Assembly: GCF_902728285.1 (NCBI RefSeq)
Contig: NW_027103286.1
Span: forward strand, 3,292,497-3,356,496
Length of the DNA: 64,000 bases
Direction: 5' to 3'
From: Clytia hemisphaerica
Taxonomy: Eukaryota
Part shown: one piece after another, positions 5,383 through 63,428 of the stretch
How positions within the stretch are numbered: position 1 is the stretch's first letter
Layout of the letters: each line of letters opens with the position of its first letter
Notes under the pieces: model-generated
Database searches by the model: none
What the model saw: only the letters and a program-made list of their open reading frames with translations
Told to the model about the DNA's origin: nothing
Position numbers and translations under genes: made by a program

Positions 5383-6424
5383 TATAAATGGGATGCCAGT
5401 TGAAGTTGACATCGAAAAAGGAGCAGATGATCGATTTCATTGTCCAATGTGTACTTGTAGCTACACCAAACGAACCAGGCTGCGACTACATCTCAACAAA
5501 TTTCACGGGCTTTTATTAAGTGACAATCATTTTTCGCAAGCATGTAATTTTCCTGGTTGTAAGGAAAAGTTTTTCAAGAAAAACCTTATGATTGAGCACC
5601 AAAAGAATGCTCATAATATTGAATTTGATGAAAGGAACTTTCAATTCCAATCATTGGAAGAGTTTTACAATTGGAAAGAGCATGAAGAATCATCTAACTA
5701 CTTCTACTTTAAAAAATCTGACAATAAAGACAAAAATTCGTTTTTGTATTTTGTTTGCCATTACAGTAGTAGACGTGATTTACGCAAAGACCAACCCGTA
5801 TGTCCTGCCCTCATCAAAGTGGCAAAGAATGGAAGCAATTTCGATGTTTATTATATAGCCAATCACAATCATATGGTTAGCCTGGGAGACATGTCTCACC
5901 AGAGAGTCAAGTTTGCAAAGATTGACTATGATCGATGGTTAGTTCAATCTATGAATCTCCATGACACAATATACTCTGTTAAAAAGATGAAGGATAAGTG
6001 TAGCTGTGAGGAAGAAAAAATCGGAGAAGATGGTCTTTGCAGTCATATCTATATTTGTGATTGCCCAAGTGAACTCTCTATTTGTAGACATGTTGGAAAA
6101 ATCATTGTAAAGCGTTCGAAAAAACAGAAAATAGTCAACGAGGAAATAGCTCGTCAAGAAATTTTACAAGTGTCCCAACATATGATCACTTCTGAAGAAA
6201 GGGAAGAAGCAAGTACTGTTCAGAATCAAGAAGAGCTTTTAATGAAACAACAATTTGTCGCATTATTAGATCATATGAAATCGTACACTGACTGTCCAGC
6301 ATTCACCAAAGACAAAGTAGAAGCAATGATTCATAAACTAAACACTCTGAAACAAGAAATGGACGGAGAACTCTCTATTGCATATCCTTGCCCTGTTTTT
6401 TGGCCATCTTCGACGGTAGAATAA
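5383..6424 (+). CDS. Zinc-finger gene A terminal exon: second C2H2 pair, FLYWCH/WRKY-GCM1-type finger (FLYFVCHYSS...CPALIKV...ANHNH) and Cys-rich tail
   Basis: ORF 5393..6424, acceptor cgttttag at 5382 in phase with the previous exon; FLYWCH-like motif read directly; paralogous to 8112..9127. Confidence 0.6.
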
Positions 6425-7103: not shown

Positions 7104-7236
7104 GTAAGAACTTATCATTTCATTTTTAGAAATAAAGAAATGCATGTATATTGTACGATGGCTCTGAAAGCGGTTTTATTCTCTTTTTCAAAATTTCTCC
7201 GTTCCTTTTAATGAAAAGGAGAAGTGAAATATGAAA

Positions 7237-7340
7237 GGTGAACTTTTTTCTCCTTTTAACACAAAAGGTGAACTTTTTTCTCCTTTTAACACAAAAAGGT
7301 GAACTTTTTTCTCCTTTTAACACAAAAGGTGAATTTTTTT
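7237..7340. repeat. Tandem ~30 bp repeat (aaaaggtgaacttttttctccttttaacac), 4 copies, in the intron of zinc-finger gene B
   Basis: Direct reading. Confidence 0.8.
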
Positions 7341-7736
7341 CACTTCACCTTTTGACAAAATGGAAATAGGAATTCTAAGGGAATGCACACGTGTGTGGAC
7401 AATCATTCGTGTTAAATATGTACAGTACTAGCTAATAGCCAGGCCATGACTTGATGATAACCTTTATTAGATTTCCCAGAAACAAAACGAGGGGGGAAAA
7501 ATGAAGTAAAGCCGAATGATAGAAGTGAATCTCCTATGTAGAATTTGAAGCAAATTGTTTTCTACATAAGTTGCGCGGCCCGCATGGTTTTTGTATACAA
7601 ACGCCAGATTAAAGATGGTCCGAAGACAACGGGAAATATTAAACTTTTCCTCATCAACTCACGATTAAGGTTCAGGTTAAAATCATGAAATTCAAGGTTA
7701 AAATGCATGACGACTAGTCTAAAAATCCAAATCCAG

Positions 7737-7935
7737 GCGATAAAAAAATTCACCTTTTGACAAAAGGTGAAAAAAATTCTCCTTTTGACAAAAGGTGAAA
7801 ATAATTCTCCTTTTGACAAAAGGTGAAAAAAGTTCTCCTTTTGACAAAAGGTGAAAATAATTCTCCTTTTGACAAAAGGTGAAAAAAGTTCTCCTTTTGA
7901 CAAAAGGTGAAAGAAATTCTCCTTTTGAAATTCAC
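7737..7935. repeat. Tandem ~33 bp repeat (ttctccttttgacaaaaggtgaaaaaaa, with palindromic core caccttttgacaaaaggtga), 6 copies, related to the 7237 array
   Basis: Direct reading; creates the spurious minus-strand ORFs 7562..7954 and 7750..8058. Confidence 0.8.
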
Positions 7936-8111
7936 TTCTCCTTTTGTTAAACAATAGAACCTATTGTTTGTTTTAAAAGGAAAAGAGAATTTGAAATGGA
8001 GAGGAAATTCTCCCTCAGAGCCATCGTAATATTGTCCCGATTTTCTTTCTTTTATCATCCTAGCTTAATAATGTTGCACAATCTCTCTAAGCTAATAAAT
8101 TTTCTCTTTAG

Positions 8112-9127
8112 TACGGAAAATGGAGAGAGTACGATCAATGTGGAGCAAGGAGTTGACAACAAGTACCATTGTTCACAATGCCCCAAAATGTATACAAGAA
8201 ACCATAGGCTGAAACTTCATGTTCAGCAAGCACATGGGTTGCCAAGCACCAAAGATCGTCACAAACAAGCTTGCGATGAACCTGGTTGTCAACATACATT
8301 TTATAAGAGGAAGGATCTGGTTCAACATCAAAAGATTGCTCATAAAATTGAGTTTGATGAAAGAAACTTTCAATTTGATACCATGGAAGATTTTTATCAT
8401 TGGAAAGAACAGGAGGAAATTTCGAATCATGTTTATTTTACTAAACAAGGTAGCAAAAAGAAGGGAACAACCACCTACCTTTTCTGTCAATTTGATGGCC
8501 ATATTCACTCGCACAAAAAGAAAGGAGAGCCTCACCGAAAGACTGATCGCAGACAGACTTACGGCGTACTAAAAACAGGGTTGATATGTCCAGCTAGAAT
8601 AATAGTTACAGAGAAAGCCACTACTGTCGAGGTTGAATATATTGCAACACACAATCATGACGTGAAGCTTGAAGATACGAAACATCAGTCCCTTAAAATC
8701 GGCAAAAATGTGAGCAATGAATGGTTTGTGCATTCTTTGAACTTGCCAGGAGTTTCTTATACAGTCAAAAAGATTGTCGACGATTGTCTTTGCGAAGAAG
8801 AAAGAACGGAGAACGACCTGTAGCCATTTGTACACATGCAACTGCTCATGCCCGCTCCCTATTTGCAAACATGTGTTCAAAGTTAATTTCTCTTATAAAA
8901 GACCTAAAAGGAAGTCGAAAAAGCAATCGCAAATTGTCGAGGACAACTTTCAAGAAGAAGAAGATCTTATAGATTACGATACAAAAGAGCAATATTTGAA
9001 TATGTTGGAACATTTCAAGAAATACGCGGAGAATCCCTCTTTTACGGATGAAATGATGGAACTGCTAACTCAAGAATTGAATGAAATAAGACTTAAAACT
9101 GAAGCGCTGCTTTCTACTTCCACCTAA
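8112..9127 (+). pseudogene. Zinc-finger gene B module exon (C2H2 pair + FLYWCH-type finger + Cys-rich tail); the reading frame breaks at about 8818-8822 (probable 2-bp deletion, ctgt[gc]agcc); possibly a pseudogene, a truncated protein or a sequence error
   Basis: ORF 7996..8823 (frame 1) continues as ORF 8774..9127 (frame 2); by alignment to gene A (EDGLCSHIYICDC vs ENDL*/TTCSHLYTCNC) the shift sits at CTGTAGCC. Confidence 0.5.
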
Positions 9128-12950: not shown

Positions 12951-14081
12951 TCATTCTTCACAACTCGATAGCGTGTAATGTTTCAATGTCTTCAATTTCA
13001 GAATTTCACTTACAGTATTTCGTGATAATTTACACCGCACATGGATACTCTCCAAACTCTCACATTCCTTAACAACGCGCAATACGGCATCGTCAAGTTC
13101 GGCATTTGGTGATGACGTCACTTCTAAAACACGCAAAGTTTGTTTGTAGATCATGGAGGCGAGATTTATATGTTCGTTGACTGTGGCTTGAAAGTATAGC
13201 TTTAAGCTGGATACGGGCACTTCCGGTAACATAATACGGAAGGTGGATTGTAGCGGATAAGTTGGATCGAAATGTAGCTCGATTCGTAGATCAGGGATGG
13301 CTTGACGTATCGAATTCCAATCGTCGCCACTCAAACATTTAAAGAATTTATCCGCGCGTTTAAAAGTGAGCGAAAGGAATTTCAATTTGGTTGTTTCGGA
13401 GATCTGTTTCAGAGCTTCTCCTTCAAAGCACGAGTATGGGATATGTAAAGTGTTCAGGTTAGATGCTTTCGAAACGAATTTAGCGATACACTTAGCAGAG
13501 ATCCGACCCATAAGGATTTTGTTTTGGATGTTCAATTGTTCTAAGCTATCTGCGTGGTTTTGAGTAATGATGTTTAGCAAGTCATCATCAAACGCTACTG
13601 GGAACTTCGATAGGTCGATTTGTTTCAACGGTTGTTTGAAAGATGGATGAAGGAAAAAATTCTTCAATGTGCCCAGTAAGAGGTGCCCAGAATAAAATAA
13701 AGGATTCTCTTCACAAAATTCGAGCGTGAAATTTTCCAGTCTCAGAGTTGGCTGTCCAACTAAAGCTTCCAAAAAGGCACAAGTATTCGTTCGGTTATTC
13801 TTAGCGCTCTGATGACATTTGATGTGTAGGTTTTTGAAGTATTTCCCATAATGCTTTGCGACAAGTTCTAATTTAGCATCTCTTTCTTCTTTGAAAATCA
13901 CAATGACGTCATTCCACAGGTGTCCCACACAAAGCGAGCGGTACCAACGCCGACATGCGGACGCTGCTTGATAGCGGTCAACCAAATCTAAACCGGTTAA
14001 AATTTCAACGCAAATTTCTTCCGGAAGTAATTGCCAATCGTGTTGCATGCTTGATAGATTGTACATTTTTAAAGTTTTCAA
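12951..14081 (-). CDS. Intronless F-box protein with an LRR-like C-terminus (376 aa; F-box = LPEEICVEILTGLDLVDRYQAASACRRWYRSL)
   Basis: Uninterrupted 1131-nt ORF; F-box consensus (LP.EI...IL..L...DL.....VCK.W) near the N-terminus; regularly spaced leucines later. Confidence 0.65.
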   Translation of the reverse strand: MKTLKMYNLSSMQHDWQLLPEEICVEILTGLDLVDRYQAASACRRWYRSLCVGHLWNDVIVIFKEERDAKLELVAKHYGKYFKNLHIKCHQSAKNNRTNTCAFLEALVGQPTLRLENFTLEFCEENPLFYSGHLLLGTLKNFFLHPSFKQPLKQIDLSKFPVAFDDDLLNIITQNHADSLEQLNIQNKILMGRISAKCIAKFVSKASNLNTLHIPYSCFEGEALKQISETTKLKFLSLTFKRADKFFKCLSGDDWNSIRQAIPDLRIELHFDPTYPLQSTFRIMLPEVPVSSLKLYFQATVNEHINLASMIYKQTLRVLEVTSSPNAELDDAVLRVVKECESLESIHVRCKLSRNTVSEILKLKTLKHYTLSSCEE

Positions 14082-31809: not shown

Positions 31810-31888
31810 CGATGTTTCGACAGGCGAATCCAATGTAATCTGGTACGGAAAACAATTTGGTTTCTGATGCAAAATTGCCATTTTCGTA
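31810..31888 (-). CDS. MVP: MVP exon 17 (YENGNFASETKLFSVPDYIGFACRNI); its 3' splice site is the seed of the adjacent minisatellite
   Basis: Acceptor ctttcag, donor G|GTATGT; matches ETAKLFSVPDFVGDACKAIA. Confidence 0.8.
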
Positions 31889-33497
31889 CTGAAAGAAAAG
31901 AGAAAGAGGTCAATTATTTGTATGAAATTGCCATTTTCATACTGAAAGAAAAGAGAAAGAGGTCAGTTATTTGTATGAAATTGCCATTTTCATACTGAAA
32001 GAAAAGAGAAAGAGGTCAGTTATTTGTATGAAATTGCCCATTTTCGTACTGAAAGAAAAGAGAAAGAAGGTCAGTTTATTTGTATGAAATTGCCATTTTC
32101 GTACTGAAAGAAAAGAGAAAGAGGTCAGTTATTTGTATGAAATTGCCATTTTCGTACTGAAAGAAAGAGAAAGAGGTCAATTATTTGTATGAATTGCCAT
32201 TTTCATACTGAAAGAAAAGAGAAAGAGGTCAGTTATTTGTATGAAATTGCCATTTTCGTACTGAAAGAAAAGAGAAAGAGGTCAGTTATTTGTATGAAAT
32301 TGCCATTTTCGTACTGAAAGAAAAGAGAAAGAGGTCAATTATTTGTATGAAATTGCCATTTTCGTACTGAAAGAAAGAGAAAGAGGTCAGTTATTGTATG
32401 AAATTGCCATTTTCGTACTGAACAAAAGAGAAAGAGGTCAATTATTGTATGAAATTGCCATTTTCATACTGAAAGAAAAGAGAAAGAGGTCAGTTATTTG
32501 TATGAAATTGCCATTTTCGTACTGAAAGAAAAGAGAAAGAGGTCAATTATTTGTATGAAATTGCCATTTTCATACTGAAAGAAAAGAGAAAGAGGTCAGT
32601 TATTTGTATGAAATTGCCATTTTCATACTGAAAGAAAGAGAAAGAGGTCAGTTATTTGTATGAAATTGCCATTTTCGTACTGAAAGAAAAGAGAAAGAGG
32701 TCAGTTATTTGTATGAAATTGCCATTTTCATACTGAAAGAAAAGAGAAAGAGGTCAGTTTTTGTATGAAATTGCCATTTTCGTACTGAAAGAAAAGAGAA
32801 AGAGGTCAGTTATTTGTATGAAATTGCCATTTTCGTACTGAAAGAAGAGAAAAGAGGTCAGTTATTTGTATGACATTGCCATTTTCATACTGAAAGAAAA
32901 GAGAAAGAGGTCAGTTATTTGTATGAAATTGCCATTTTCGTACTGAAAGAAAAGAGAAAGAGGTCAGTTATTTGTATGAAATTGCCATTTTCATACTGAA
33001 AGAAAAGAGAAAGAGGTCAGTTATTTGTATGAAATTGCCATTTTCGTACTGAAAGAAAAGAGAAAGAGGTCAGTTATTTGTATGAAATTGCCATTTTCGT
33101 ACTGAAAGAAAAGAGAAAGAGGTCAGTTATTTGTATAGAAATTGCCATTTCGTACTGAAAGAAAAGAGAAGAGGTCAATTATTTGTATGAAATTGCCATT
33201 TTCATACTGAAGAAAAGAGAAAGAGGTCAGTTTATTTGTATGAAATTGCCATTTTCGTACTGAAAGAAAGAGAAAGAGGTCAGTTTATTGTATGAAATTG
33301 CCATTTTCGTACTGAAAGAAAGAGAAAGAGGTCAGTATTTGTATGAAATTGCCATTTTCGTACTGAAAGAAAAGAGAAAGAGGTCAGTTATTTGTATGAA
33401 ATTGCCATTTTCATACTGAAAGAAAAGAGAAAGAGGTCAGTTATTTGTATGAAATTGCCATTTTCATACTGGAAGAAAAGAGAAAGAGGTCAGTTAT
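31861..33497. repeat. Minisatellite, about 30 copies of a ~52 bp unit (gaaattgccattttcgtactgaaagaaaagagaaagaggtcagttatttgtat); on the minus strand each unit is a polypyrimidine tract + CAG + the first 17 nt of MVP exon 17
   Basis: Periodicity read directly; the first unit overlaps the real exon 17 acceptor at 31888-31890. Confidence 0.9.
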
Positions 33498-33664
33498 TCT
33501 ATTTAGTCGGACACTTATATCAAGAATCAGAGCTTTGGTCTGGCCATTTTTTTGTCTGAGCTTCGGGCTGTTCTCGTATCAGCTTATATAAAGAACACGA
33601 CTTTGGTTCTCTTCGGCGAAGTAAAATTTTGGAAATAAGTTAATCGGGTAGTATAAGTACATAC

Positions 33665-33724
33665 ATCAAATTTATTGTTGGCAGCATATTTGATCTTCAA
33701 TCGTGCATGATCAAGTGTCTCCAC
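33665..33724 (-). CDS. MVP: MVP exon 16 (VETLDHARLKIKYAANNKFD)
   Basis: Acceptor caacag, donor GAT|GTATGT. Confidence 0.7.
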
Positions 33725-33871
33725 CTGTTGGGAATTGAAACAAAAGAATTTAAAGGTGAGTAACTATTAAACCCCAAAACAAGGAAGCTTGTTTACAACA
33801 ATGTAAACAATGTAGATAAGATAATTTGGGCAAGCGCTCCTCAGAGCTTTATCTAGCAACATCTGTTTTAC

Positions 33872-33951
33872 CTCAATGATGTCAGTGATATAGTCAGGAC
33901 CAAGCATGATTGCTAAAGATTTCAATGCGTTCTCTTTTTTTGGTTTGCCAG
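33872..33951 (-). CDS. MVP: MVP exon 15 (AGKPKKENALKSLAIMLGPDYITDIIE)
   Basis: Acceptor cttacag, donor GAG|GTAAAA; matches [20 protein letters not shown]. Confidence 0.75.
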
Positions 33952-34120
33952 CTGTAAGATATAAAGACAAAGAAATTATCATTATCTGATTTGACCTTTT
34001 GAAAAAGAGAAACCTTTTGTGAGTACGATAAACTTATACATGAAAGCAATGCGGTCGGGATTTTTTTTGTGGGCATATAAAAGTATTTAGGAAAGACAAG
34101 GGACAGAAGATAAAACCTAC

Positions 34121-39218: not shown

Positions 39219-42200
39219 TCATTTATGATATTCGAGCTTAGCTTTACTGTTTAAGTAATTGATAAAAAATTGAATTTTTCTCTCGTCACTGCCAGAGTTC
39301 ATCCCGACTGTTTTTTCGGCTTCGGCGAATGGCCAATCCACCTCGACTTGTAAAGAATTCACGGTTCTGATGAAGCCGACGCAATCTTTATTGTTTAGTT
39401 CAATGACCAAACCTTGGGAGCCTATCATGACGTCAGGGATTTTCAACTTGAGCGAGAAAAACTTCATGAAAAACTTGATTTGCTGTTCGTAATATAAGGG
39501 AATTGTAGAATCCAATGGTACACTTTGAATCTCAACTACAGTAAATGGTAATGGACAGAGAGGTTTGGTTTTTGATTGATGAAAGAACTTTAAAAACCAT
39601 TTACATTCCGGTACGTCCATATCGATAATCAGTGACTCGAGTCCGACCATTTTATCCGGGATTTTGAGGACTGATGTCACTTTTCCAGAGGAATCAGTTT
39701 TAACAATATTAGTACTGGTAAAAGATGCCTCCATGTCACGTATGTCTTGAGAAGTCAAATGACTACAAATCTCAAACTTTTGGAACGGGTCTTCATCTAA
39801 CTTCAATGATGTGGCGGTGACAAGTTTAAGGAACCCCATGCATTCTTTATGGTGTTTGTTAATGAGCAACGTGTCACCACCCTTCATACAATCCGGTACT
39901 TTTAAAGTCGTGATATTGTTCTTTTCAAGCAAGTAAACAACTTCCTCAATATAATCAAGCTGTATATCAGACTTTACCTCAGCTGTTTTATCAAACGAAC
40001 TATCAACAATAACAAAATTTCGATCAACACCAATCAGAGCGATTAGGTTTTTGAACTCTGGGGTGTCCATATCAATAATCAAAGTATTTTGTCCAATCAA
40101 ACAATTTGGTCTTTTGAGTTTGAGGTTCATATCATTTATGAAGCTTGCTACTTTAATTGGTTCACCTTCCATAAGCAGTCGCTGGATACTTGCTGTAGAA
40201 TATGGACATTCAACTTGATAATTTGAATAATAAATGAAGTTAATTAACTCTCTGCAAGCATCTATAGCTGTGTTGATGATTATAGAGTCAGTATCTACCA
40301 TAGATCTAGGAAGTTCAAGTTTGAGATTCGAAGATTCAATAATGTATTTGATCTGTTCTATATTCTTTTGATTTATTTGACTGTGGATTTCGATCGATGT
40401 CATTGGATAAACTGGTTTCAATTGCAGATCATAAGCAACGTTTATATGATGTCTACACTCTGGAAAATTCGTATTGATAATAATCGAGTCAGTACTAACC
40501 ATACAGCTAGGAATGTCGAGTTTTAAATTCGAGGCTTTGATAATATATTGTATTTTTCTCATATCTGTACGATTGATTTGACTGTGAATTTCGATCGAAG
40601 TTGCAGGATAAACTGGTTGTAATTGCAGATCATAAGCAATGTTTATATGATATCTACATTCGGGGGAATTCGTGTTGATAATTAAAACATCAGAGCCGAT
40701 CATACAATCGGGGACTTTTAATTTCAAATTCAAACGTTTGATAATAGACGGTAATTTATCTTTGATGAATTGTTCATCCTCAGGCTTTAAAAATGCTTCG
40801 CCTGCAGAAAATGGATATTTGACGTAAGAATATGGACAATCCACCGACGCCCTAGTTCTATGGACAATTTTCATAAATTGGATACATTCAGTGTTCCTAG
40901 TGTTAACGACTAAAGCATTAGTGCTTTTCATCACGCGTGGAAGTCTTAATACGAGATTCAGATGTTGAACAAGAAAACTCACGAGGTCGAAGTCAAAATT
41001 AACCTCAAAGGTGATGTCAGCTTTGGCAAAGAGATGATCTTTTGATGTTAACTTCGAATCTCTCAAAAACTTAACCCACTGTTTACATTCTGGTATTGCA
41101 GTATTAATGATGAGACTATCCACGCCCTGCATACATCTAGGTATTTTAAGCTTGAGATTCAAATGTTCGACAAGGAAAACGACATTCCTCAAATCAATTC
41201 CACGAAGATCACATTTGATCTCCACTGTAGAAAATGGGCATTCTACGCGCATGCGTCCTTCATAGAGCGTCGTCATGAATTCTTGGCATTCTGGGATTTC
41301 AGAATTAACGATCAGGCTGTCCGGTCCAAACATACAATCTGGTATTTCAACAACACTATTCTTTACCAGGTACCTTTCAAATCTCCAGGATCTGAAGGGC
41401 TGTACAAATCTTCCATACATGGATGACCTACTCCGATGTAAATCAGATAGCCGTCTGAAGAATTTAATGAAAACGTCGTTCTCGTTCAAAAGTCGACCGA
41501 TACCGAACATAACAGGTGCACAACTTGAAAGCTCGCGGTTTCTTAAATATGGAGAGATTCCTTTAGTAACGTACAAATGAAGTCCTGTCAGGAATTCCTG
41601 AAGAACTAAGTGCTTGTACTGGTAAATCGGTTCTCGCATTTCACCACGATTGTATTTGACGATAAGACCCGTTTGCTCAAGATGTACGGGACATTTCAAT
41701 TGACGAACCTCCTCTTCAGAAAACAATACCTGGTTTTTCATATAAGTTTTTACCGATAAAGTCATCAATGAATAAATACAATCGATCACATTAGCATCGT
41801 CAAGCATTTCAAGCAAGTTGTCATAGCCTTTATTACATAAACCTTGTAAATGTTTCCTCAAAAAGACAAGGCATGCATACATGTTAAGTTCAGTGTAAGT
41901 ATTTAACGGTTTCGTTATGAGATCCTCGCTGTACACGTTACAGATGACCCAAGCAAACACGGGAACGGTAGACATGACTTTCAAATTATGCGATGACCTA
42001 ATGATCTCCTTCACTCGAATGGCTTTTTCAGTGTTCTCGTTAAAGAATTTATCGATGTATTGTTCGACTTCCTCCTCTTTGAAACCGCAAACCTCAACTG
42101 TTTTTATTTTGATCACCTTTCTGCTGGAAATTTTTAACTCCAGAATCTCTTTCTTTACAAAGTCACACGCTTTTGGTCTCCCAGATGCAATACATTTGTG

Positions 42201-42869
42201 GCCTTTCAAAATAGAACCTTGTGTGTTGATAAGATCGAAGACGATTTGAAAAGGAGTCAGACTTTTGACTTTCATCTTGGATTTATTCTTGGAGCGATCG
42301 TAAACACCTTGTAATTCGTCGAGCCCGTCAATGATTACCAGAATTTTATCCGCAACTGGTTCGAGATCTCTCAATGTGATCTTTTCGAAAATGTCAGGGT
42401 ATTTGATTTTAAATAGATCATCAATTGATTCCAGCTTGTCGTAGATTTGATTGATTTCACGGCATGAAAAGAAGAAGACAAACTCCATCGGGAAATCTAA
42501 TCCAAGTTGACGTTTGGCCCATTTCTGGGTATACATTTCAAGCATGGTTGTTTTTCCCATGCCACCCACAGCACGAACAAAAACTGCTTCATCCTCCTTC
42601 TGGAACAAGTCATGGAGTTCTATACTTTCTTTCTGTAAAAGCCTTTGTTCCATCAGCGCCTTACGGTCCGAATTATTGATCTCTTTTTCAACCTCGGTTG
42701 CTTTGAGGACCGCTAGTTCAGTGTATAAGTTTTCATCGTATTGGTAATTGACTTGATTCTTGTCTCCCATCAAAGGCTCGTGAACGAGTGACGTAATCAC
42801 TTCCTTAGCGTATTGACATCGTAATTTTAACGATGCTGATTGGATATCTAAAAAAAAGAATTTTGACAT
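39219..42869 (-). CDS. Intronless NACHT-family NTPase (NLR-like), 1216 aa: short N-terminal region, Walker A VGGMGKTT, Walker B ILVIIDGLDEL, then about 11 copies of a ~90-aa repeat with core NLKL.IPDCM.G.D.LIINT..PEC..F; nested in MVP intron 3, same strand
   Basis: Single 3651-nt ORF, the longest in the window; P-loop and DGLDE motifs read directly; the repeat period is visible in protein and DNA (40260-40700 holds two near-identical units). Confidence 0.85.
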   Translation of the reverse strand: MSKFFFLDIQSASLKLRCQYAKEVITSLVHEPLMGDKNQVNYQYDENLYTELAVLKATEVEKEINNSDRKALMEQRLLQKESIELHDLFQKEDEAVFVRAVGGMGKTTMLEMYTQKWAKRQLGLDFPMEFVFFFSCREINQIYDKLESIDDLFKIKYPDIFEKITLRDLEPVADKILVIIDGLDELQGVYDRSKNKSKMKVKSLTPFQIVFDLINTQGSILKGHKCIASGRPKACDFVKKEILELKISSRKVIKIKTVEVCGFKEEEVEQYIDKFFNENTEKAIRVKEIIRSSHNLKVMSTVPVFAWVICNVYSEDLITKPLNTYTELNMYACLVFLRKHLQGLCNKGYDNLLEMLDDANVIDCIYSLMTLSVKTYMKNQVLFSEEEVRQLKCPVHLEQTGLIVKYNRGEMREPIYQYKHLVLQEFLTGLHLYVTKGISPYLRNRELSSCAPVMFGIGRLLNENDVFIKFFRRLSDLHRSRSSMYGRFVQPFRSWRFERYLVKNSVVEIPDCMFGPDSLIVNSEIPECQEFMTTLYEGRMRVECPFSTVEIKCDLRGIDLRNVVFLVEHLNLKLKIPRCMQGVDSLIINTAIPECKQWVKFLRDSKLTSKDHLFAKADITFEVNFDFDLVSFLVQHLNLVLRLPRVMKSTNALVVNTRNTECIQFMKIVHRTRASVDCPYSYVKYPFSAGEAFLKPEDEQFIKDKLPSIIKRLNLKLKVPDCMIGSDVLIINTNSPECRYHINIAYDLQLQPVYPATSIEIHSQINRTDMRKIQYIIKASNLKLDIPSCMVSTDSIIINTNFPECRHHINVAYDLQLKPVYPMTSIEIHSQINQKNIEQIKYIIESSNLKLELPRSMVDTDSIIINTAIDACRELINFIYYSNYQVECPYSTASIQRLLMEGEPIKVASFINDMNLKLKRPNCLIGQNTLIIDMDTPEFKNLIALIGVDRNFVIVDSSFDKTAEVKSDIQLDYIEEVVYLLEKNNITTLKVPDCMKGGDTLLINKHHKECMGFLKLVTATSLKLDEDPFQKFEICSHLTSQDIRDMEASFTSTNIVKTDSSGKVTSVLKIPDKMVGLESLIIDMDVPECKWFLKFFHQSKTKPLCPLPFTVVEIQSVPLDSTIPLYYEQQIKFFMKFFSLKLKIPDVMIGSQGLVIELNNKDCVGFIRTVNSLQVEVDWPFAEAEKTVGMNSGSDERKIQFFINYLNSKAKLEYHK

Positions 42870-42924
42870 GAATGCTACTGAATCTCTGTCGTCTCAGTAT
42901 TTGAAGTTTTTTAGAGAATACAGT

Positions 42925-43090
42925 TGGGTCTCTCTAATTCGATCTTTAAGGGGGAAAGAATTTTCTTCGAATTGGAGAAAGATTCGAGCTACAGAAAATA
43001 TTTTGGATGACTCAACAGCTGAGGAGACCAATGTTTTAGCTCGAATTACAGACATTCGAATGACAGTGGTTCGAATTAGACAGAGTTGAC
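42925..43090. repeat. TCGAATTA/TCGAGCTA SINE-like fragment immediately 5' of the NACHT ORF
   Basis: ctctaattcgatc...gattcgagctacag...ctcgaattacagacattcgaatgacagtggttcgaattagac. Confidence 0.4.
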
Positions 43091-43253
43091 TGTAAGAAGA
43101 TTTACATCGATTAATCTAAAAGTGTGTGATTCAGATGGTTGCTTATAATGTTTAAACAAATTCAAAAGTACACAAATATAAATATTTTTATTACATGAAA
43201 AGTGTCTTCAAAAAGGAATTTTTGAATAGAAATTTCCTTAAAGTACGCTCATG

Positions 43254-43454
43254 CTAACCTTCAGTAACAAGTGTATTCTGCTTGATATTATTGATAATAT
43301 CCACTCCATTTAACCTTTCCAACTCCAATTCTAACCGTGACCATTCGACTGTTTTGAGTTGATCCGTTAGATTTTCATCTTCATTCGACGATAAACCAAG
43401 TCGTAAAAGTAATTGATTTTTCTCTTCCCCAATCTTGTTGGATATAATTTCCAA
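43254..43454 (-). other. 66-aa ORF between the HEPN and NACHT genes (…LLLRLGLSSNEDENLTDQLKTVEWSRLELELERLNGVDIINNIKQ…); could be an upstream coding exon or uORF of the NACHT gene, or noise
   Basis: ORF track; possible donor GAAG|GTTAGC at its 3' end and acceptor ttcagtag just upstream of the NACHT ATG. Confidence 0.2.
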
Positions 43455-43499
43455 AACTTCTGTGGTGCAATATATTCCAGGTTCTTAAAAAACAAAATT

Positions 43500-43920
43500 A
43501 AATTCTCTTAAAAAAGACTCCATGACATAGTACGGTGGAGTCTCCATGACTCGAACACGCACGGGGAACACAAATTTGTTCGAGTTAAGGAAATTTCGAG
43601 TTATATAAGGAGTAAGGTATATGAGGAATTGTTAACTGAAAGGACGAAAAAACTTGTTCGAGTTAATGAGACATTCGAGTTATAGAGGTTCGAGTTAAAG
43701 AGACACTGCTGTATTACTCGTTCGAGAAAGCCGGAATAGAAAGCCGGAGAAGAAAGTGTAAGAAGAGAGAGTAAGTGGGTGTTGATTTAGGGTGACTAAA
43801 AATCTATACAGTGCTCCGGTCAACACGCACGCGGAACACAAATTCATTCGAGGTAAAAGAAGACATTTTAGTCTTAGATTTTCGAGTTAAAGAGACTCCA
43901 CTGAATTATGGTGTTAATCT
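43500..43920. repeat. Two inverted copies of the TCGAGTTA SINE-like family (43500-43720 and 43780-43900), between the HEPN and NACHT genes
   Basis: tctccatgactcgaacacgcacggggaacacaaatttgttcgagttaagga... and cggaacacaaattcattcgaggtaaaag...ttttcgagttaaagagactcc. Confidence 0.5.
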
Positions 43921-43948
43921 GGACAAAAAACTATGAAAATCTTATTAA

Positions 43949-44941
43949 TTAAAATATATGGTGAAAAATACCTTTAAGTGTGGGTAAATTGTCTTTAATA
44001 AATTCATGTTCTTCTTTCAGACGCTCGACAAGGTGATAAAGATTTAAGATGCATTCTTTATTTTCTTGGTGAAAATCTTTGTGGTTCGCCAAGATGGTTG
44101 CATAATCATCCAATCTATCGCTGTGATCTTCAAGCACAATGTCGTGATCTACAAGGGTAGTATCGTGATCTGCAAGGGTAGTGTTGTGATCGCCAAGGGT
44201 AGTGCCATGTTCGTTCAAAGTAGTGTCATGTAAATTTAGGTTTTTATCTAGATTCGAAATTTCTTGGTTCTGAGTCACCATGTCTTTCTTTAATTGAATA
44301 TTATCCGCTCCAACGTGGGAAAGTTCGTTCAATATCTTTTTCGAGAAAAAGGATAAAGATTGAACTACGAGATTATTTGTGACATCAAGTGGTCTGTTTT
44401 TCAATGCGTTGAAATTATAAGTTGTGAGTCCTAAACCTATGACGATATTTTCCCCTTCACTCCATCTCAAGTTGAATTCAACCGAATCAATACTTTTGCC
44501 GTCAGCATGTAAAAGACGATTTCTCCAATCGCGTGCAAGAAGGACAAACGCTGCAGGACTGACGTCGGTTGGATCTAAAGCCTTTTTCCAACCCTTTTTA
44601 GGAGGTGGTAATGTAGTAAAATTGATAATCAAAACAATGATTAGAGTTATGTCAAACGTTTGACTGTCTGTTTGATTTGAGTTTGGGGGAAGTAAAGTAT
44701 CTACTTGGCTTTTCTTTAAAACGCCTTTCTTTGCTAACTGGTTTATTGTACTTTGTTGCTTTCGAAGTTCAATGTTAAGGGCTGTTGAGTTTCTCGGTAA
44801 GCCAACATAATTGGGATCGTTGTAATCATTATGTAAGAGAGCAAGTAGTGCGCCTTTTAGAGGCTCGTGAAGCAGAGTAGCTAATCTAAGCCAATTCTCT
44901 ATCTCTTGAATGGCCTGAGCTACAGTAACGTAGGATGACAT
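43949..44941 (-). CDS. Intronless DZIP3-type HEPN domain protein (330 aa): N-terminal HEPN (FDITLIIVLIINFTTLPPPKKGWKKALDPTDVSPAAFVLLARDWRNRLLHA, Rx4H) and C-terminal 8-aa repeats (DHDTTLVDH...), coiled-coil-like
   Basis: Single ORF; the HEPN_DZIP3 signature (FD..L..L.RN......PP..GW...P...D.S..A.I.R.K..RN...H) read directly. Confidence 0.7.
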   Translation of the reverse strand: MSSYVTVAQAIQEIENWLRLATLLHEPLKGALLALLHNDYNDPNYVGLPRNSTALNIELRKQQSTINQLAKKGVLKKSQVDTLLPPNSNQTDSQTFDITLIIVLIINFTTLPPPKKGWKKALDPTDVSPAAFVLLARDWRNRLLHADGKSIDSVEFNLRWSEGENIVIGLGLTTYNFNALKNRPLDVTNNLVVQSLSFFSKKILNELSHVGADNIQLKKDMVTQNQEISNLDKNLNLHDTTLNEHGTTLGDHNTTLADHDTTLVDHDIVLEDHSDRLDDYATILANHKDFHQENKECILNLYHLVERLKEEHEFIKDNLPTLKGIFHHIF

Positions 44942-56841: not shown

Positions 56842-57129
56842 GTAAGTAATTTCTTTTGATATGAAAGCCAAACTCATTACAATCACGTCAAAACAAACAA
56901 TAATCCTATACCGGATTTTTGATTTAGGGGGCCGGTAATAACCGAATATACCTTTTAAGTCACTTTGAAGCTGAAAGAGTTATGAACACTTTCCATTCTG
57001 TTATGAAAAAGTTTAAACCATTGAAATTGACCTTGGTCTAGAGCTCTAGACGTATCACTGTCTTAGTACACTTCTTACAAAGGATAAAGAACATGAGTGG
57101 CCATATCAAGGTATCTTTCTCCCTCCTAG

Positions 57130-57548
57130 ATGGATCAGGCACCACAACGACCAAAGCACCAGTCACTTCTGCGCCACGTGGCAAGCTCTTTAAACAAGTC
57201 AGCAGCAACAAATGTCTTGGTCATGATCACAACGATAACCTCATCTTCACCAGTCGTTGTCAAACACGCTTTGAAGCAATGGAAGGAAAATTATTCCAGT
57301 CTAATGCACCAGGAGCTAAATGCGCCGAAGCTTTGAGCAACAACAGTGAATCTGGGATTCGTTTCAGAGCTAATTGCGATCAAGGCTTCAGAAAAGTTCA
57401 AAAAGGCAGATATTTTGTCCTTCAACACAAACAAACTGGCAAATGTATTCATCCTAACCGAGGATCATCCAACCCTTCTGATGGAACCAAAGCTGTTATT
57501 TACCATGATTGCAATTCTGGCTCACGTATTCAGTTCAGAGAAGAATAG
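57130..57548 (+). CDS. Astacin terminal exon: Thr-rich linker + ~125-aa Cys-containing C-terminal domain (possible beta-trefoil/lectin-like; not ShK)
   Basis: Acceptor ctccctcctag; ORF through stop TAG 57546-57548. Confidence 0.65.
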
Positions 57549-59551: not shown

Positions 59552-61613
59552 AATAAAGACAAGGAGGAATTTTTTATCATAATTCAACGACCCAACATTT
59601 GAAGTCCAAAGAAAATTCGTGAAGGAGGCTCAGAGGAGTACCCAGAGTCAATTAAATTACCACTATTGTCTAGCCACTGGAAACAGGTGTTCATAGAAGA
59701 TGGTTTTTCGAACTTCACGAAAGTTGTTAATGAACGGGAATCAAACGATATATTTGCAATAGTACGCTGGATGGATGGAGAAATTGAGTATATAAAGTTG
59801 GAACTCTTAGCCGATGATCGATGGATTAAAAATCTAAGATTACAAAAATTTTAGATTGTTGAATAGGGAATGAATGAAATAGTTTATTTGAGAAGAAAAA
59901 CAACAACAATGGTAGCAAAATTCAACGTGGATACACCAAATAAAAGATGTGTAAACGAATGTATTTAAGTTATTACTATAATCCAAAAACCCTATGTAAC
60001 ACTACTTTGAGCTAAAATCGTAGAGGCAATAAAAAGAACTAAGAAAACAAAAATATTTATTGCTTGATGGTAATATATTTCTAGCTTATAAAAACAATGT
60101 TATCATTTACAAGGATCAAATCTCATTCTTTCATTGCATCATTTGGAATTTGTCGATTAATTAGAAAGCGACGTTTTTCAACAGCAAAATCTAATGCTTC
60201 TTCAAAATCCATATCTTCCTCATCTCTAACCCTTTGTAAAGTTTCCATCACAGATTTATGTGTTTTATCCTTTTCATTGCTCGAAGAAAAAGGATTTTAT
60301 ATTTATAAATCTCATGAATTGATAAGTCAGTCTCTTGACATTCGTTCAACATGCTCTCCCAAATATTAAATGTTTCTTTAACACCTTGAGATTCTTCACT
60401 ATCACTGGACATGGGCTCGCTGTCTGTAAAGTCTTCATCAGACTCTTCATCTTCTTCTTCAGATTCTTCAGGGTGAGCCTTTGCAACATGTCGATTATAA
60501 TTGCTTTTATTGGAAAAAGTCTTTTCGCAAATGTCGCATTCATACATCGTGTTTCTCCCGCCGGTTTTAAACTTATTTGAAGAAGTAGCATCCTTACTTA
60601 CGAATTTATATGCAAAACACAAGAGTAATCCGATATCGGGTTTCTCTTTAGGAGCCTGGTTTCTCTCTAAGATCTTTGTTTCTTCCAGATTACCTCCTAG
60701 TCTTTATTGGTCCACGTTCGTTTCTTGGTCCGGGACTAGCTTGAGAAATCTAGTCTTACTTGATCCTCTTTTGGGACTCCAGTAGTTCTTTACCTAGTCC
60801 TTGTTAGTCCCTTTTTGAGACCAACCAATTATTATTGGTGGCTGCAAAAAGTAATCCCTTTTTGTGTCGACATAGTCCCTTTTAGACTTCTATTAGGACT
60901 ACCCGACTACCTTCCTGTTTCGGACTACTTAGTTTTGATAAACCTTTTTCGGAATTAGCTAAATCCTGTTTTGGATACCCAATTTAAGCTTCATGAGTAT
61001 CTAATCCTCTTTTGTATCTACATAGTCCTAGCTTAATTATCCTTAGGATTAACGGGACTACCTAATCCTTCTTTAGAACTAACCAATCCTTATTGGGATT
61101 GCCAAATCCCTCTTTGGGATCAACTAATCCTCATTTGAGATTACCTGATCCCTCTTTAGGATCAACTAATCCTCATTTAGGATTACCTAATCCCTCTTTG
61201 GGATCAGCTAATCCTCATTTAGCATTCCCTAATCCTTCTCTGGGATCAACTAATCCTCATTAGGGATTACCTAATCCCTCTTTGGGATTACCTAGTCCCT
61301 CTTTGGGACCAACTAATCCTCGTTTAGGGACTAGCTTGAGAAATCTAGTCTTACATGATCCTCTTTTGGGACTATGTAGTTCTTCACCTAGTCCTTGTTA
61401 GTCCCTTTTTTGAGACCAACCAATCGGAACTGCGTGATTCTAGTTAATCCCTCTTTTAGGATTACTTAATCACTAGTTGGATCCTTTCTTCCAATTCATA
61501 TCAAAGACTCATGGTATGTTGTTGTTGTTGTTTCCTTTTTCTTTTCTTTTCTTTTTTTTTTTTTACGCGTTTTTTGTTTGGTGTGGGATTTTATTATTTT
61601 GTTAGTTACACTC
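59552..61613. repeat. Left arm of a giant inverted duplication (at least 2.06 kb per arm; the right arm is cut by the window end, so the true extent is unknown)
   Basis: 59552-61613 is the reverse complement of 61938-64000, read directly; the ORF pairs are identical apart from one homopolymer indel. Confidence 0.9.
60960..61340. repeat. Array of ~25-bp units rich in TAATCC/GGATTA (ggattacctaatccctctttgggatcaactaatcctcattta), bounded by ~100-bp direct repeats (60730-60830 and 61320-61430); mirrored at 62205-62600
   Basis: Direct reading; more than 25 TAATCC hexamers per arm. Confidence 0.8.
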
Positions 61614-61948: not shown

Positions 61949-62927
61949 CAAAATAATAAAATCCCACACCAAACAAAAAACGCGTAAAAAAAAAAAAAGA
62001 AAAGAAAAGAAAAAGGAAACAACAACAACAACATACCATGAGTCTTTGATATGAATTGGAAGAAAGGATCCAACTAGTGATTAAGTAATCCTAAAAGAGG
62101 GATTAACTAGAATCACGCAGTTCCGATTGGTTGGTCTCAAAAAAGGGACTAACAAGGACTAGGTGAAGAACTACATAGTCCCAAAAGAGGATCATGTAAG
62201 ACTAGATTTCTCAAGCTAGTCCCCAAACGAGGATTAGTTGGTCCCAAAGAGGGACTAGGTAATCCCAAAGAGGGATTAGGTAATCCCTAATGAGGATTAG
62301 TTGATCCCAGAGAAGGATTAGGGAATCCTAAATGAGGATTAGTTGATCCCAAAGAGGGATTAGGTAATCCTAAATGAGGATTAGTTGATCCTAAAGAGGG
62401 ATCAGGTAATCTCAAATGAGGATTAGTTGATCCCAAAGAGGGATTAGGCAATCCCAATAAGGATTGGTTAGTTCCAAAGAAGGATTAGGTAGTCCCGTTA
62501 ATCCTAAGGATAATTAAGCTAGGACTATGTAGATACAAAAGAGGATTAGATACTCATGAAGCTTAAATTGGGTATCCAAAACAGGATTTAGCTAATTCCG
62601 AAAAAGGTTTATCAAAACTAAGTAGTCCGAAACAGGAAGGTAGTCGGGTAGTCCTAATAGAAGTCTAAAAGGGACTATGTCGACACAAAAAGGGATTACT
62701 TTTTGCAGCCACCAATAATAATTGGTTGGTCTCAAAAAGGGACTAACAAGGACTAGGTAAAGAACTACTGGAGTCCCAAAAGAGGATCAAGTAAGACTAG
62801 ATTTCTCAAGCTAGTCCCGGACCAAGAAACGAACGTGGACCAATAAAGACTAGGAGGTAATCTGGAAGAAACAAAGATCTTAGAGAGAAACCAGGCTCCT
62901 AAAGAGAAACCCGATATCGGATTACTC

Positions 62928-63428
62928 TTGTGTTTTGCATATAAATTCGTAAGTAAGGATGCTACTTCTTCAAATAAGTTTAAAACCGGCGGGAGAAACA
63001 CGATGTATGAATGCGACATTTGCGAAAAGACTTTTTCCAATAAAAGCAATTATAATCGACATGTTGCAAAGGCTCACCCTGAAGAATCTGAAGAAGAAGA
63101 TGAAGAGTCTGATGAAGACTTTACAGACAGCGAGCCCATGTCCAGTGATAGTGAAGAATCTCAAGGTGTTAAAGAAACATTTAATATTTGGGAGAGCATG
63201 TTGAACGAATGTCAAGAGACTGACTTATCAATTCATGAGATTTATAAATATAAAATCCTTTTTCTTCGAGCAATGAAAAAGGATAAAACACATAAATCTG
63301 TGATGGAAACTTTACAAAGGGTTAGAGATGAGGAAGATATGGATTTTGAAGAAGCATTAGATTTTGCTGTTGAAAAACGTCGCTTTCTAATTAATCGACA
63401 AATTCCAAATGATGCAATGAAAGAATGA
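62928..63428 (+). CDS. Arm-encoded 166-aa protein: single C2H2 finger (YECDICEKTFSNKSNYNRHVAKAH) + poly-acidic Ser/Glu stretch; mirrored copy 60248..60622 (-) is truncated by a 1-nt homopolymer difference (a4 vs a5 at ~60268/63283)
   Basis: ORF pair from the track; C2H2 consensus read directly. Confidence 0.45.
   Translation: MCFAYKFVSKDATSSNKFKTGGRNTMYECDICEKTFSNKSNYNRHVAKAHPEESEEEDEESDEDFTDSEPMSSDSEESQGVKETFNIWESMLNECQETDLSIHEIYKYKILFLRAMKKDKTHKSVMETLQRVRDEEDMDFEEALDFAVEKRRFLINRQIPNDAMKE

Follow-up and report, generated by a model that had tools for sequence, protein, structure and literature searches.

A 64-kb genomic window of Clytia hemisphaerica, to whose positions all coordinates below refer, carries on its minus strand two long open reading frames (ORFs): one of 330 amino acids (aa) at 43949..44941, with a DZIP3-type HEPN domain, and one of 1216 aa at 39219..42869, with a NACHT NTPase domain. 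The question that they raise is whether they are two neighbouring genes forming a HEPN-NACHT module, as the original prediction held, or pieces of one gene. Both ORFs lie where they had been described, on the same strand and about 1.1 kb apart (the gap is 1079 bp), and both are far beyond chance expectation because they are so long in a sequence of about 35% GC. The reading favoured here, at a probability of roughly 0.87, is a single minus-strand gene of three exons (44941..39219) encoding a 1607-aa NLR-like (STAND) protein in which HEPN, coiled coil, Death fold, NACHT and ten repeats follow one another; the figure includes the switch mechanism proposed for this protein below, while what is demonstrated is how the exons are arranged, which domains they encode and that the fused layout is conserved.

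Exon structure across the gap

The best match of the NACHT ORF is a 1607-aa Clytia hemisphaerica "uncharacterized protein" in NCBI/UniRef, here P0021, which is 100% identical to it and carries both PF18738 and PF05729. The N-terminus of P0021 is that of the 330-aa ORF; the two part after "...NLPTLK", and 75 residues that belong to neither ORF follow before P0021 joins the NACHT ORF at "DIQSASLKLR". Exon 1 (43972..44941, minus strand), with the start codon, HEPN domain and coiled coil, encodes aa 1-323 and the first base of codon 324, matches P0021 aa 1-323 exactly and ends at the donor G|GTATTT; an in-frame stop lies 12 codons before its ATG. It is followed on the same strand by intron 1 (43484..43971; 488 bp, GT...AG, phase 1), whose donor position is shared with the paralogue P0079 and the read-through model P0010, and by the 225-bp exon 2 (43259..43483; aa 324-398), which is symmetric (phase 1-1), as is typical of a shuffled domain exon, and holds a cryptic Death-fold domain at about aa 327-393. 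Intron 2 (42848..43258, minus strand; 411 bp, GT...AG, phase 1) has its junction in common with the contig L001 and with P0024, from an independent annotation. Exon 3 (39219..42847, minus strand) encodes aa 399-1607 and the stop, comprising a pre-NACHT linker, the NACHT module and the repeat array, and is a 100% tblastn match to P0021. Joined, the three exons give a coding sequence of 4824 nt whose translation is exactly P0021.

With the exons mapped in this way through P0021, the 330-aa ORF is therefore exon 1 plus seven codons of intron read-through: the first 21 bases of intron 1 supply its last seven codons, the tail GIFHHIF before the stop. At the other end of the gap, the NACHT ORF opens with seven codons (MSKFFFL) that are the 3' end of intron 2, its polypyrimidine tract and acceptor, in translation; the sole upstream ATG of this ORF sits in that tract, seven codons ahead of the acceptor. 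The description of both genes as intronless and separately translated thus gives way to exons 1 and 3 of one gene with two GT-AG introns, a 225-bp coding exon in the 1.1-kb gap and a single 1607-aa product. By tblastn, the window contains no second HEPN or NACHT copy and no tandem array. A protein search with the HEPN ORF did not return P0021, which is ascribed to the word-index search; this is not counted against the fusion, because the sequence of P0021 begins with that ORF.

The same layout recurs among relatives. The protein sequence of exon 2 is conserved in seven fused paralogues, whose overall identity to P0021 is 34-75%; C329, L366 and W371 are invariant, and in the paralogues the segment runs unbroken into conserved sequence on either side. 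HEPN and NACHT lie in one protein in at least six further Clytia proteins (P0022, P0025, P0027, P0038, P0079 and P0081). In the UniProt Clytia proteome, a separate annotation, the P0079 model runs from HEPN through to NACHT, and that of P0024 crosses the boundary between the Death-fold and NACHT exons at "...TLITS|DILIASSKLR". The contig L001, an ENA metagenome sequence of another species whose HEPN domain is 59% identical, holds a HEPN ORF, a linker-exon ORF and the start of a NACHT in the same order and on the same strand; its exon 2 ends with "...TLITEG" and its exon 3 resumes with "GISLASSKLR", precisely the exon 2/3 junction of the window, and its NACHT exon is broken off shortly past Walker A. 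On another ENA contig, L002, no HEPN or linker was found in the 1 kb present upstream of its NACHT ORF. Whether paralogues of the two families are adjacent elsewhere had been put forward as a test, and they are so in the strongest form, as fused domains, in Clytia and in the identical layout of L001. The idea that HEPN and NACHT work together is supported more strongly than first proposed, because the two are fused in one protein; the part of it that falls is their being adjacent separate genes.

Several public "HEPN-only" proteins (P0010 and P0002, and L001 2353-3420) stop a few codons past the conserved exon-1 donor. Like the 330-aa ORF, such entries appear to be artefacts in which exon 1 is read on into the intron, or else they could be genuine isoforms with the intron retained. 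Reading ORFs in intron-containing genomes splits genes of this kind into false "modules".

Domain content of the 1607-aa protein

The DZIP3/hRUL138-type HEPN domain spans aa 54-188 (44378..44782, minus strand). The profile search that had been called for bears out this identity: the 330-aa ORF matches Pfam HEPN_DZIP3 (PF18738) with E=1.7e-25 and 90 bits against a cut-off of 27, over profile positions 3-139 of 144. The Rx4-6H signature of HEPN domains, usually with N after R, is present as predicted in its Rx4H form, R140-N-R-L-L-H145 (44507..44524, minus strand, read from the sequence), a putative RNase active site; R140, N141 and H145, along with W139, are invariant across eight paralogues.

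Behind the HEPN domain, autocorrelation detects eight repeats of (D/E)H(D/N)TTL(x) at aa 237-292 (44066..44233, minus strand), within a longer predicted coiled coil of about aa 200-322. These are heptads, for example LHDTTLN EHGTTLG DHNTTLA DHDTTLV, and not units of eight residues as had been suggested: self-identity of the tail is 45% at lag 7 and 43% at lag 14, and 8% at lag 8. Heptad number differs among paralogues or models: P0010 and P0079 are set apart by an indel of 36 aa, and P0001 has many more heptads than P0021, so the length of the coiled coil appears to evolve fast. P0001 is a 424-aa protein with HEPN, coiled coil and part of the Death fold and no NACHT, named "E3 ubiquitin-protein ligase DZIP3-like" at NCBI. 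In the heptads each Leu is followed, three positions on, by a His, an unusual arrangement for a coiled-coil core.

Exon 2 is predicted to encode a Death-fold domain directly upstream of NACHT, the canonical adaptor position of NLRs; the assignment, at superfamily level only, comes from a model built on eight sequences, in which the segment forms a compact helical bundle with Death-fold topology. The NACHT NTPase domain itself lies at aa 487-669 (42036..42584, minus strand), and its original identification is confirmed by a match of the 1216-aa ORF to Pfam NACHT (PF05729) at E=9.6e-18 and 65 bits (cut-off 26.7), covering profile positions 3-166 of 167. Both motifs expected of a NACHT/STAND NTPase, Walker A (GxxxxGK[ST]) and Walker B (hhhhDGxDE), are intact and can be read from the sequence, as GGMGKTT at aa 493-499 (42546-42566, minus strand) and LVIIDGLDE at aa 568-576 (42315-42341, minus strand). 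As in an NLR, an N-terminal effector or adaptor domain and NACHT share a single polypeptide; the C-terminal leucine-rich repeats (LRRs) of NLRs are absent.

In their place stand ten α/β repeats of 67-81 aa each, a putative sensor domain occupying aa 892-1607 (39222..41369, minus strand). Their consensus is NLKLK.P.CM.G.D.LIIN...PEC...PF...EI, and four successive repeats begin exactly 67 aa apart. Repeats 4 and 5 (40338..40739, minus strand) are a recent tandem duplication, 201 bp each with about 80% DNA identity, seen by Tandem Repeats Finder as a period of 201 at 40273-40746 and in the protein as the near-identical units aa 1102-1168 and 1169-1235. An AlphaFold2 (AF2) model of the region shows regular β-β-α-β-α units with a mean predicted local distance difference test score (pLDDT) of 83.8; the arrangement between repeats is less certain, because the predicted template modelling score (pTM) is only 0.62. 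The region has no Pfam match; a profile of 35 units found nothing among PDB sequences at E<=10, and hhalign, run with the repeat against aligned LRR regions of vertebrate NLRs, gave a probability of 0.2%. Foldseek returned nothing at E<=1e-3, its top hits being weak matches to NLRP2, NLRP9 and F-box LRR proteins mixed with TIM barrels. When 1.84 billion representatives were scanned in full with phmmer, only 16 relatives of the region came up. Among the NACHT homologues fetched, a hidden Markov model of the repeat unit finds about 17 with arrays of 5-10 copies; in many more it finds a single conserved copy, placed directly behind the NACHT module, and in the vertebrate NLR matches none.

Hamada et al. 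(2020) counted 56 Clytia NACHT/NB-ARC proteins, three of them with TPR, three with WD40 and none with LRRs. The array fits these counts and may be the one element of the locus that has gone undescribed. It is tentatively suggested that the array of β-β-α-β-α units of 64-67 aa is an undescribed class of sensor repeat replacing LRRs in NLR-like proteins of leptothecate hydrozoans, and that retention of intron 1 yields a free HEPN-coiled-coil protein beside the receptor, though the balance is against this combined proposal. If true, it would help to explain why surveys recognise no repeat domain in about 50 of the 56 Clytia NACHT/NB-ARC proteins, and a full-length receptor and a free HEPN-coiled coil from one gene would make a built-in two-component system.

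Known systems and a candidate mechanism

The gene is already annotated, and its HEPN-NACHT fusion is of an already known, ordinary kind. Such an arrangement in a metazoan had been put forward as new, but fusions of DZIP3-type HEPN to NACHT have been in the literature since 2013 and are described in cnidarians, including C. hemisphaerica, and in oysters (PMC3710099, PMC8260672, PMC9646362, PMC8662601). Anantharaman et al. (2013) reported animal DZIP3/hRUL138 HEPN domains fused to CARD, NACHT, DEATH and LRR, with lineage-specific expansions in Nematostella and oyster, proposed antiviral or apoptotic roles like those of RNase L, and noted bacterial HEPN-STAND fusions. LRRs aside, DZIP3-type HEPN is the domain most often combined with NACHT in many anthozoans and in C. 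hemisphaerica (Emery et al., 2021); more than 50 proteins with HEPN N-terminal to NACHT, Rx4H being prevalent, occur in the pearl oyster (Takeuchi et al., 2022); and HEPN-NLRs, their function putative, are found in nine invertebrate taxa (Tassia et al., 2021). They are a recognised class of invertebrate innate-immunity candidates with putative function. The Clytia protein shares with them an N-terminal PF18738 HEPN with Rx4H/RN, followed by NACHT in one polypeptide, and the lineage-specific expansion; it differs in adding the heptad coiled coil and the profile-invisible Death fold between HEPN and NACHT, and in a C-terminal array that is not LRR, TPR or WD40.

With vertebrate NLRs (NLRP/NLRC: PYD or CARD, NACHT, LRR) it has in common the tripartite layout, a Death fold immediately N-terminal to NACHT, and a weak but significant NACHT homology to NLRP3/NLRC3-like proteins of fish and frog (E about 1e-15 to 1e-6). 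Unlike them, it has the extra HEPN RNase-type domain and the coiled coil; the PF17776 and PF17779 domains of those matches are not detected in it, and its repeats are unrelated to LRRs at profile level. Human DZIP3 (hRUL138) shares the HEPN family PF18738, whereas its RING, TPR and other domains are not detected in the Clytia protein, the rest of whose architecture is NLR-like. With RNase L and Ire1 the likeness is one of predicted logic, ligand on a sensor leading to self-association and juxtaposed HEPN RNases, a sequence of events well established for those two and an analogy drawn by Anantharaman et al. (2013); their sensors, however, are ankyrin repeats binding 2-5A or a lumenal domain, their oligomerisation is by pseudokinase or kinase and not NACHT, and activity of the Clytia protein is only predicted. 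Bacterial HEPN-STAND fusions and antiviral STAND proteins (Avs/bNACHT-type) are similarly single polypeptides that begin with a nuclease, HEPN or another, and end with a sensor, with a STAND NTPase between the two (Anantharaman et al., 2013); the Clytia gene, by contrast, is a spliced eukaryotic gene with a metazoan-type Death fold. The parallel with prokaryotic antiviral systems therefore holds as an architectural analogy only, since neither ORF matches any PADLOC model at E<=0.01.

A mechanism can be proposed on the model of NLR/STAND proteins and of HEPN RNases that are activated by dimerisation (RNase L, Ire1, Cas13, Csm6). The active site of HEPN domains generally requires dimerisation. 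The C-terminal repeats would keep the protein off until a pathogen- or damage-derived ligand is bound; nucleoside triphosphate-dependent oligomerisation of NACHT would then gather the N-terminal HEPN domains, assisted by the coiled coil, and the juxtaposed HEPN domains would form a composite RNase site cutting viral and/or host RNA. The Death-fold domain may meanwhile nucleate homotypic assemblies or recruit partners such as caspases or adaptors. Given the intact Walker A and B motifs and the invariant R-N-x3-H, a STAND-type switch of this kind is most likely and is the favoured working model.

For the annotation of cnidarian immune genes, two features could be of modest use: a profile-invisible Death fold on its own symmetric exon between HEPN and NACHT, and a confidently modelled, lineage-restricted repeat array overlooked by Pfam-based surveys of NLRs. 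If the array truly senses ligand, many "repeat-less" hydrozoan NACHT proteins would be complete receptors.

Alternative readings and the rest of the window

Several points weigh against the single spliced gene with its Death fold and HEPN-based switch. The splicing is deduced from an annotated model and comparative conservation; public annotation of one paralogue also includes a HEPN-only, intron-retaining model (P0010 as against P0079), which may mean that a short form is made beside the full-length protein. No Death-family Pfam match at E<=10 was obtained with any of seven paralogue linker sequences, nor did a linker profile match any of the PDB sequences. The metal-independent RNase activity expected of DZIP3-type HEPN is called putative (Takeuchi et al., 2022; Tassia et al., 2021), and the mechanism is for that reason entirely inferential.

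In a rather unlikely alternative, the gene structure is the same and HEPN is a module for binding or sensing RNA rather than a nuclease, with the Death fold signalling as in classical NLR or apoptosome-like platforms. Human DZIP3 is an RNA-binding ubiquitin ligase, which counts in favour of this, as does the place of the Death fold directly before NACHT, the canonical effector position. HEPN-NLRs have also been suggested to sense cytoplasmic RNA (Tassia et al., 2021). Against it, the intact R-N-x3-H signature is invariant across paralogues, which suggests selection on catalysis, and the C-terminal repeats are already a candidate sensor.

It is unlikely, again with one gene, that two products are made, retention of intron 1 giving a free 330-aa HEPN-coiled-coil protein that could co-assemble with, or regulate, the full-length form through the coiled coil. 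A retained intron 1 would close the ORF after just seven added codons and leave HEPN and coiled coil whole, but in an AT-rich intron chance alone would be expected to put a stop soon after the donor. Precedents are a paralogue that appears in the older UniProt annotation both as the spliced P0079 and as the read-through, HEPN-only P0010, diverging exactly at the donor, and P0001, which lacks NACHT; read-through models may, however, stem from unspliced pre-mRNA or from ORF calling.

A pseudogene, unexpressed or decaying within a fast-expanding family, or an annotation artefact is very improbable: the lineage-specific expansion does include truncated members (P0001, P0038), and the NACHT exon of L001 is interrupted soon after Walker A, but here the 4824-nt frame is unbroken over three exons, with splice sites, Walker A, Walker B and Rx4H all intact. 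Most improbable of all is the two-gene reading, in which a HEPN effector of 330 aa and a NACHT sensor of 1216 aa come from independent, intronless genes co-regulated like a prokaryotic defence operon, since, although both ORFs are open with an ATG start and databases hold HEPN-only proteins of like length (P0002, P0010, P0011), a conserved coding exon in the gap links them in frame through GT-AG introns to match an annotated protein exactly, the ATG of the NACHT ORF belongs to a polypyrimidine tract seven codons from the acceptor, several HEPN-only entries appear to be exon-1 ORFs running into the intron (P0010 compared with P0079; P0002), six paralogues are fused, and no PADLOC model is matched by either ORF.

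Elsewhere in the window, a 53-bp satellite of about 31 copies with 95% identity lies at 31872-33498, coincident with a spike in GC skew at 32001-34000. Two 42-bp tandem arrays (21-bp sub-period) at 61054-61319 and 62222-62496, in opposite orientation and about 900 bp apart, could be a foldback or terminal-inverted-repeat-type mobile element; just downstream of them is a C2H2 zinc-finger ORF (62928-63428). Tandem paralogous ORFs at 5393-6424 and 7996-8823, both on the plus strand, are 41% identical over 228 aa and have weak C2H2 zinc-finger matches, and between them lie tandem repeats of 28-30 bp at 7234-7341 and 7742-7928. An ORF at 57093-57548 (plus strand) has a weak ricin-B-lectin-like match (E about 4e-3), and a long ORF at 12951-14081 (minus strand) carries an F-box-like domain (E=3.6e-9).

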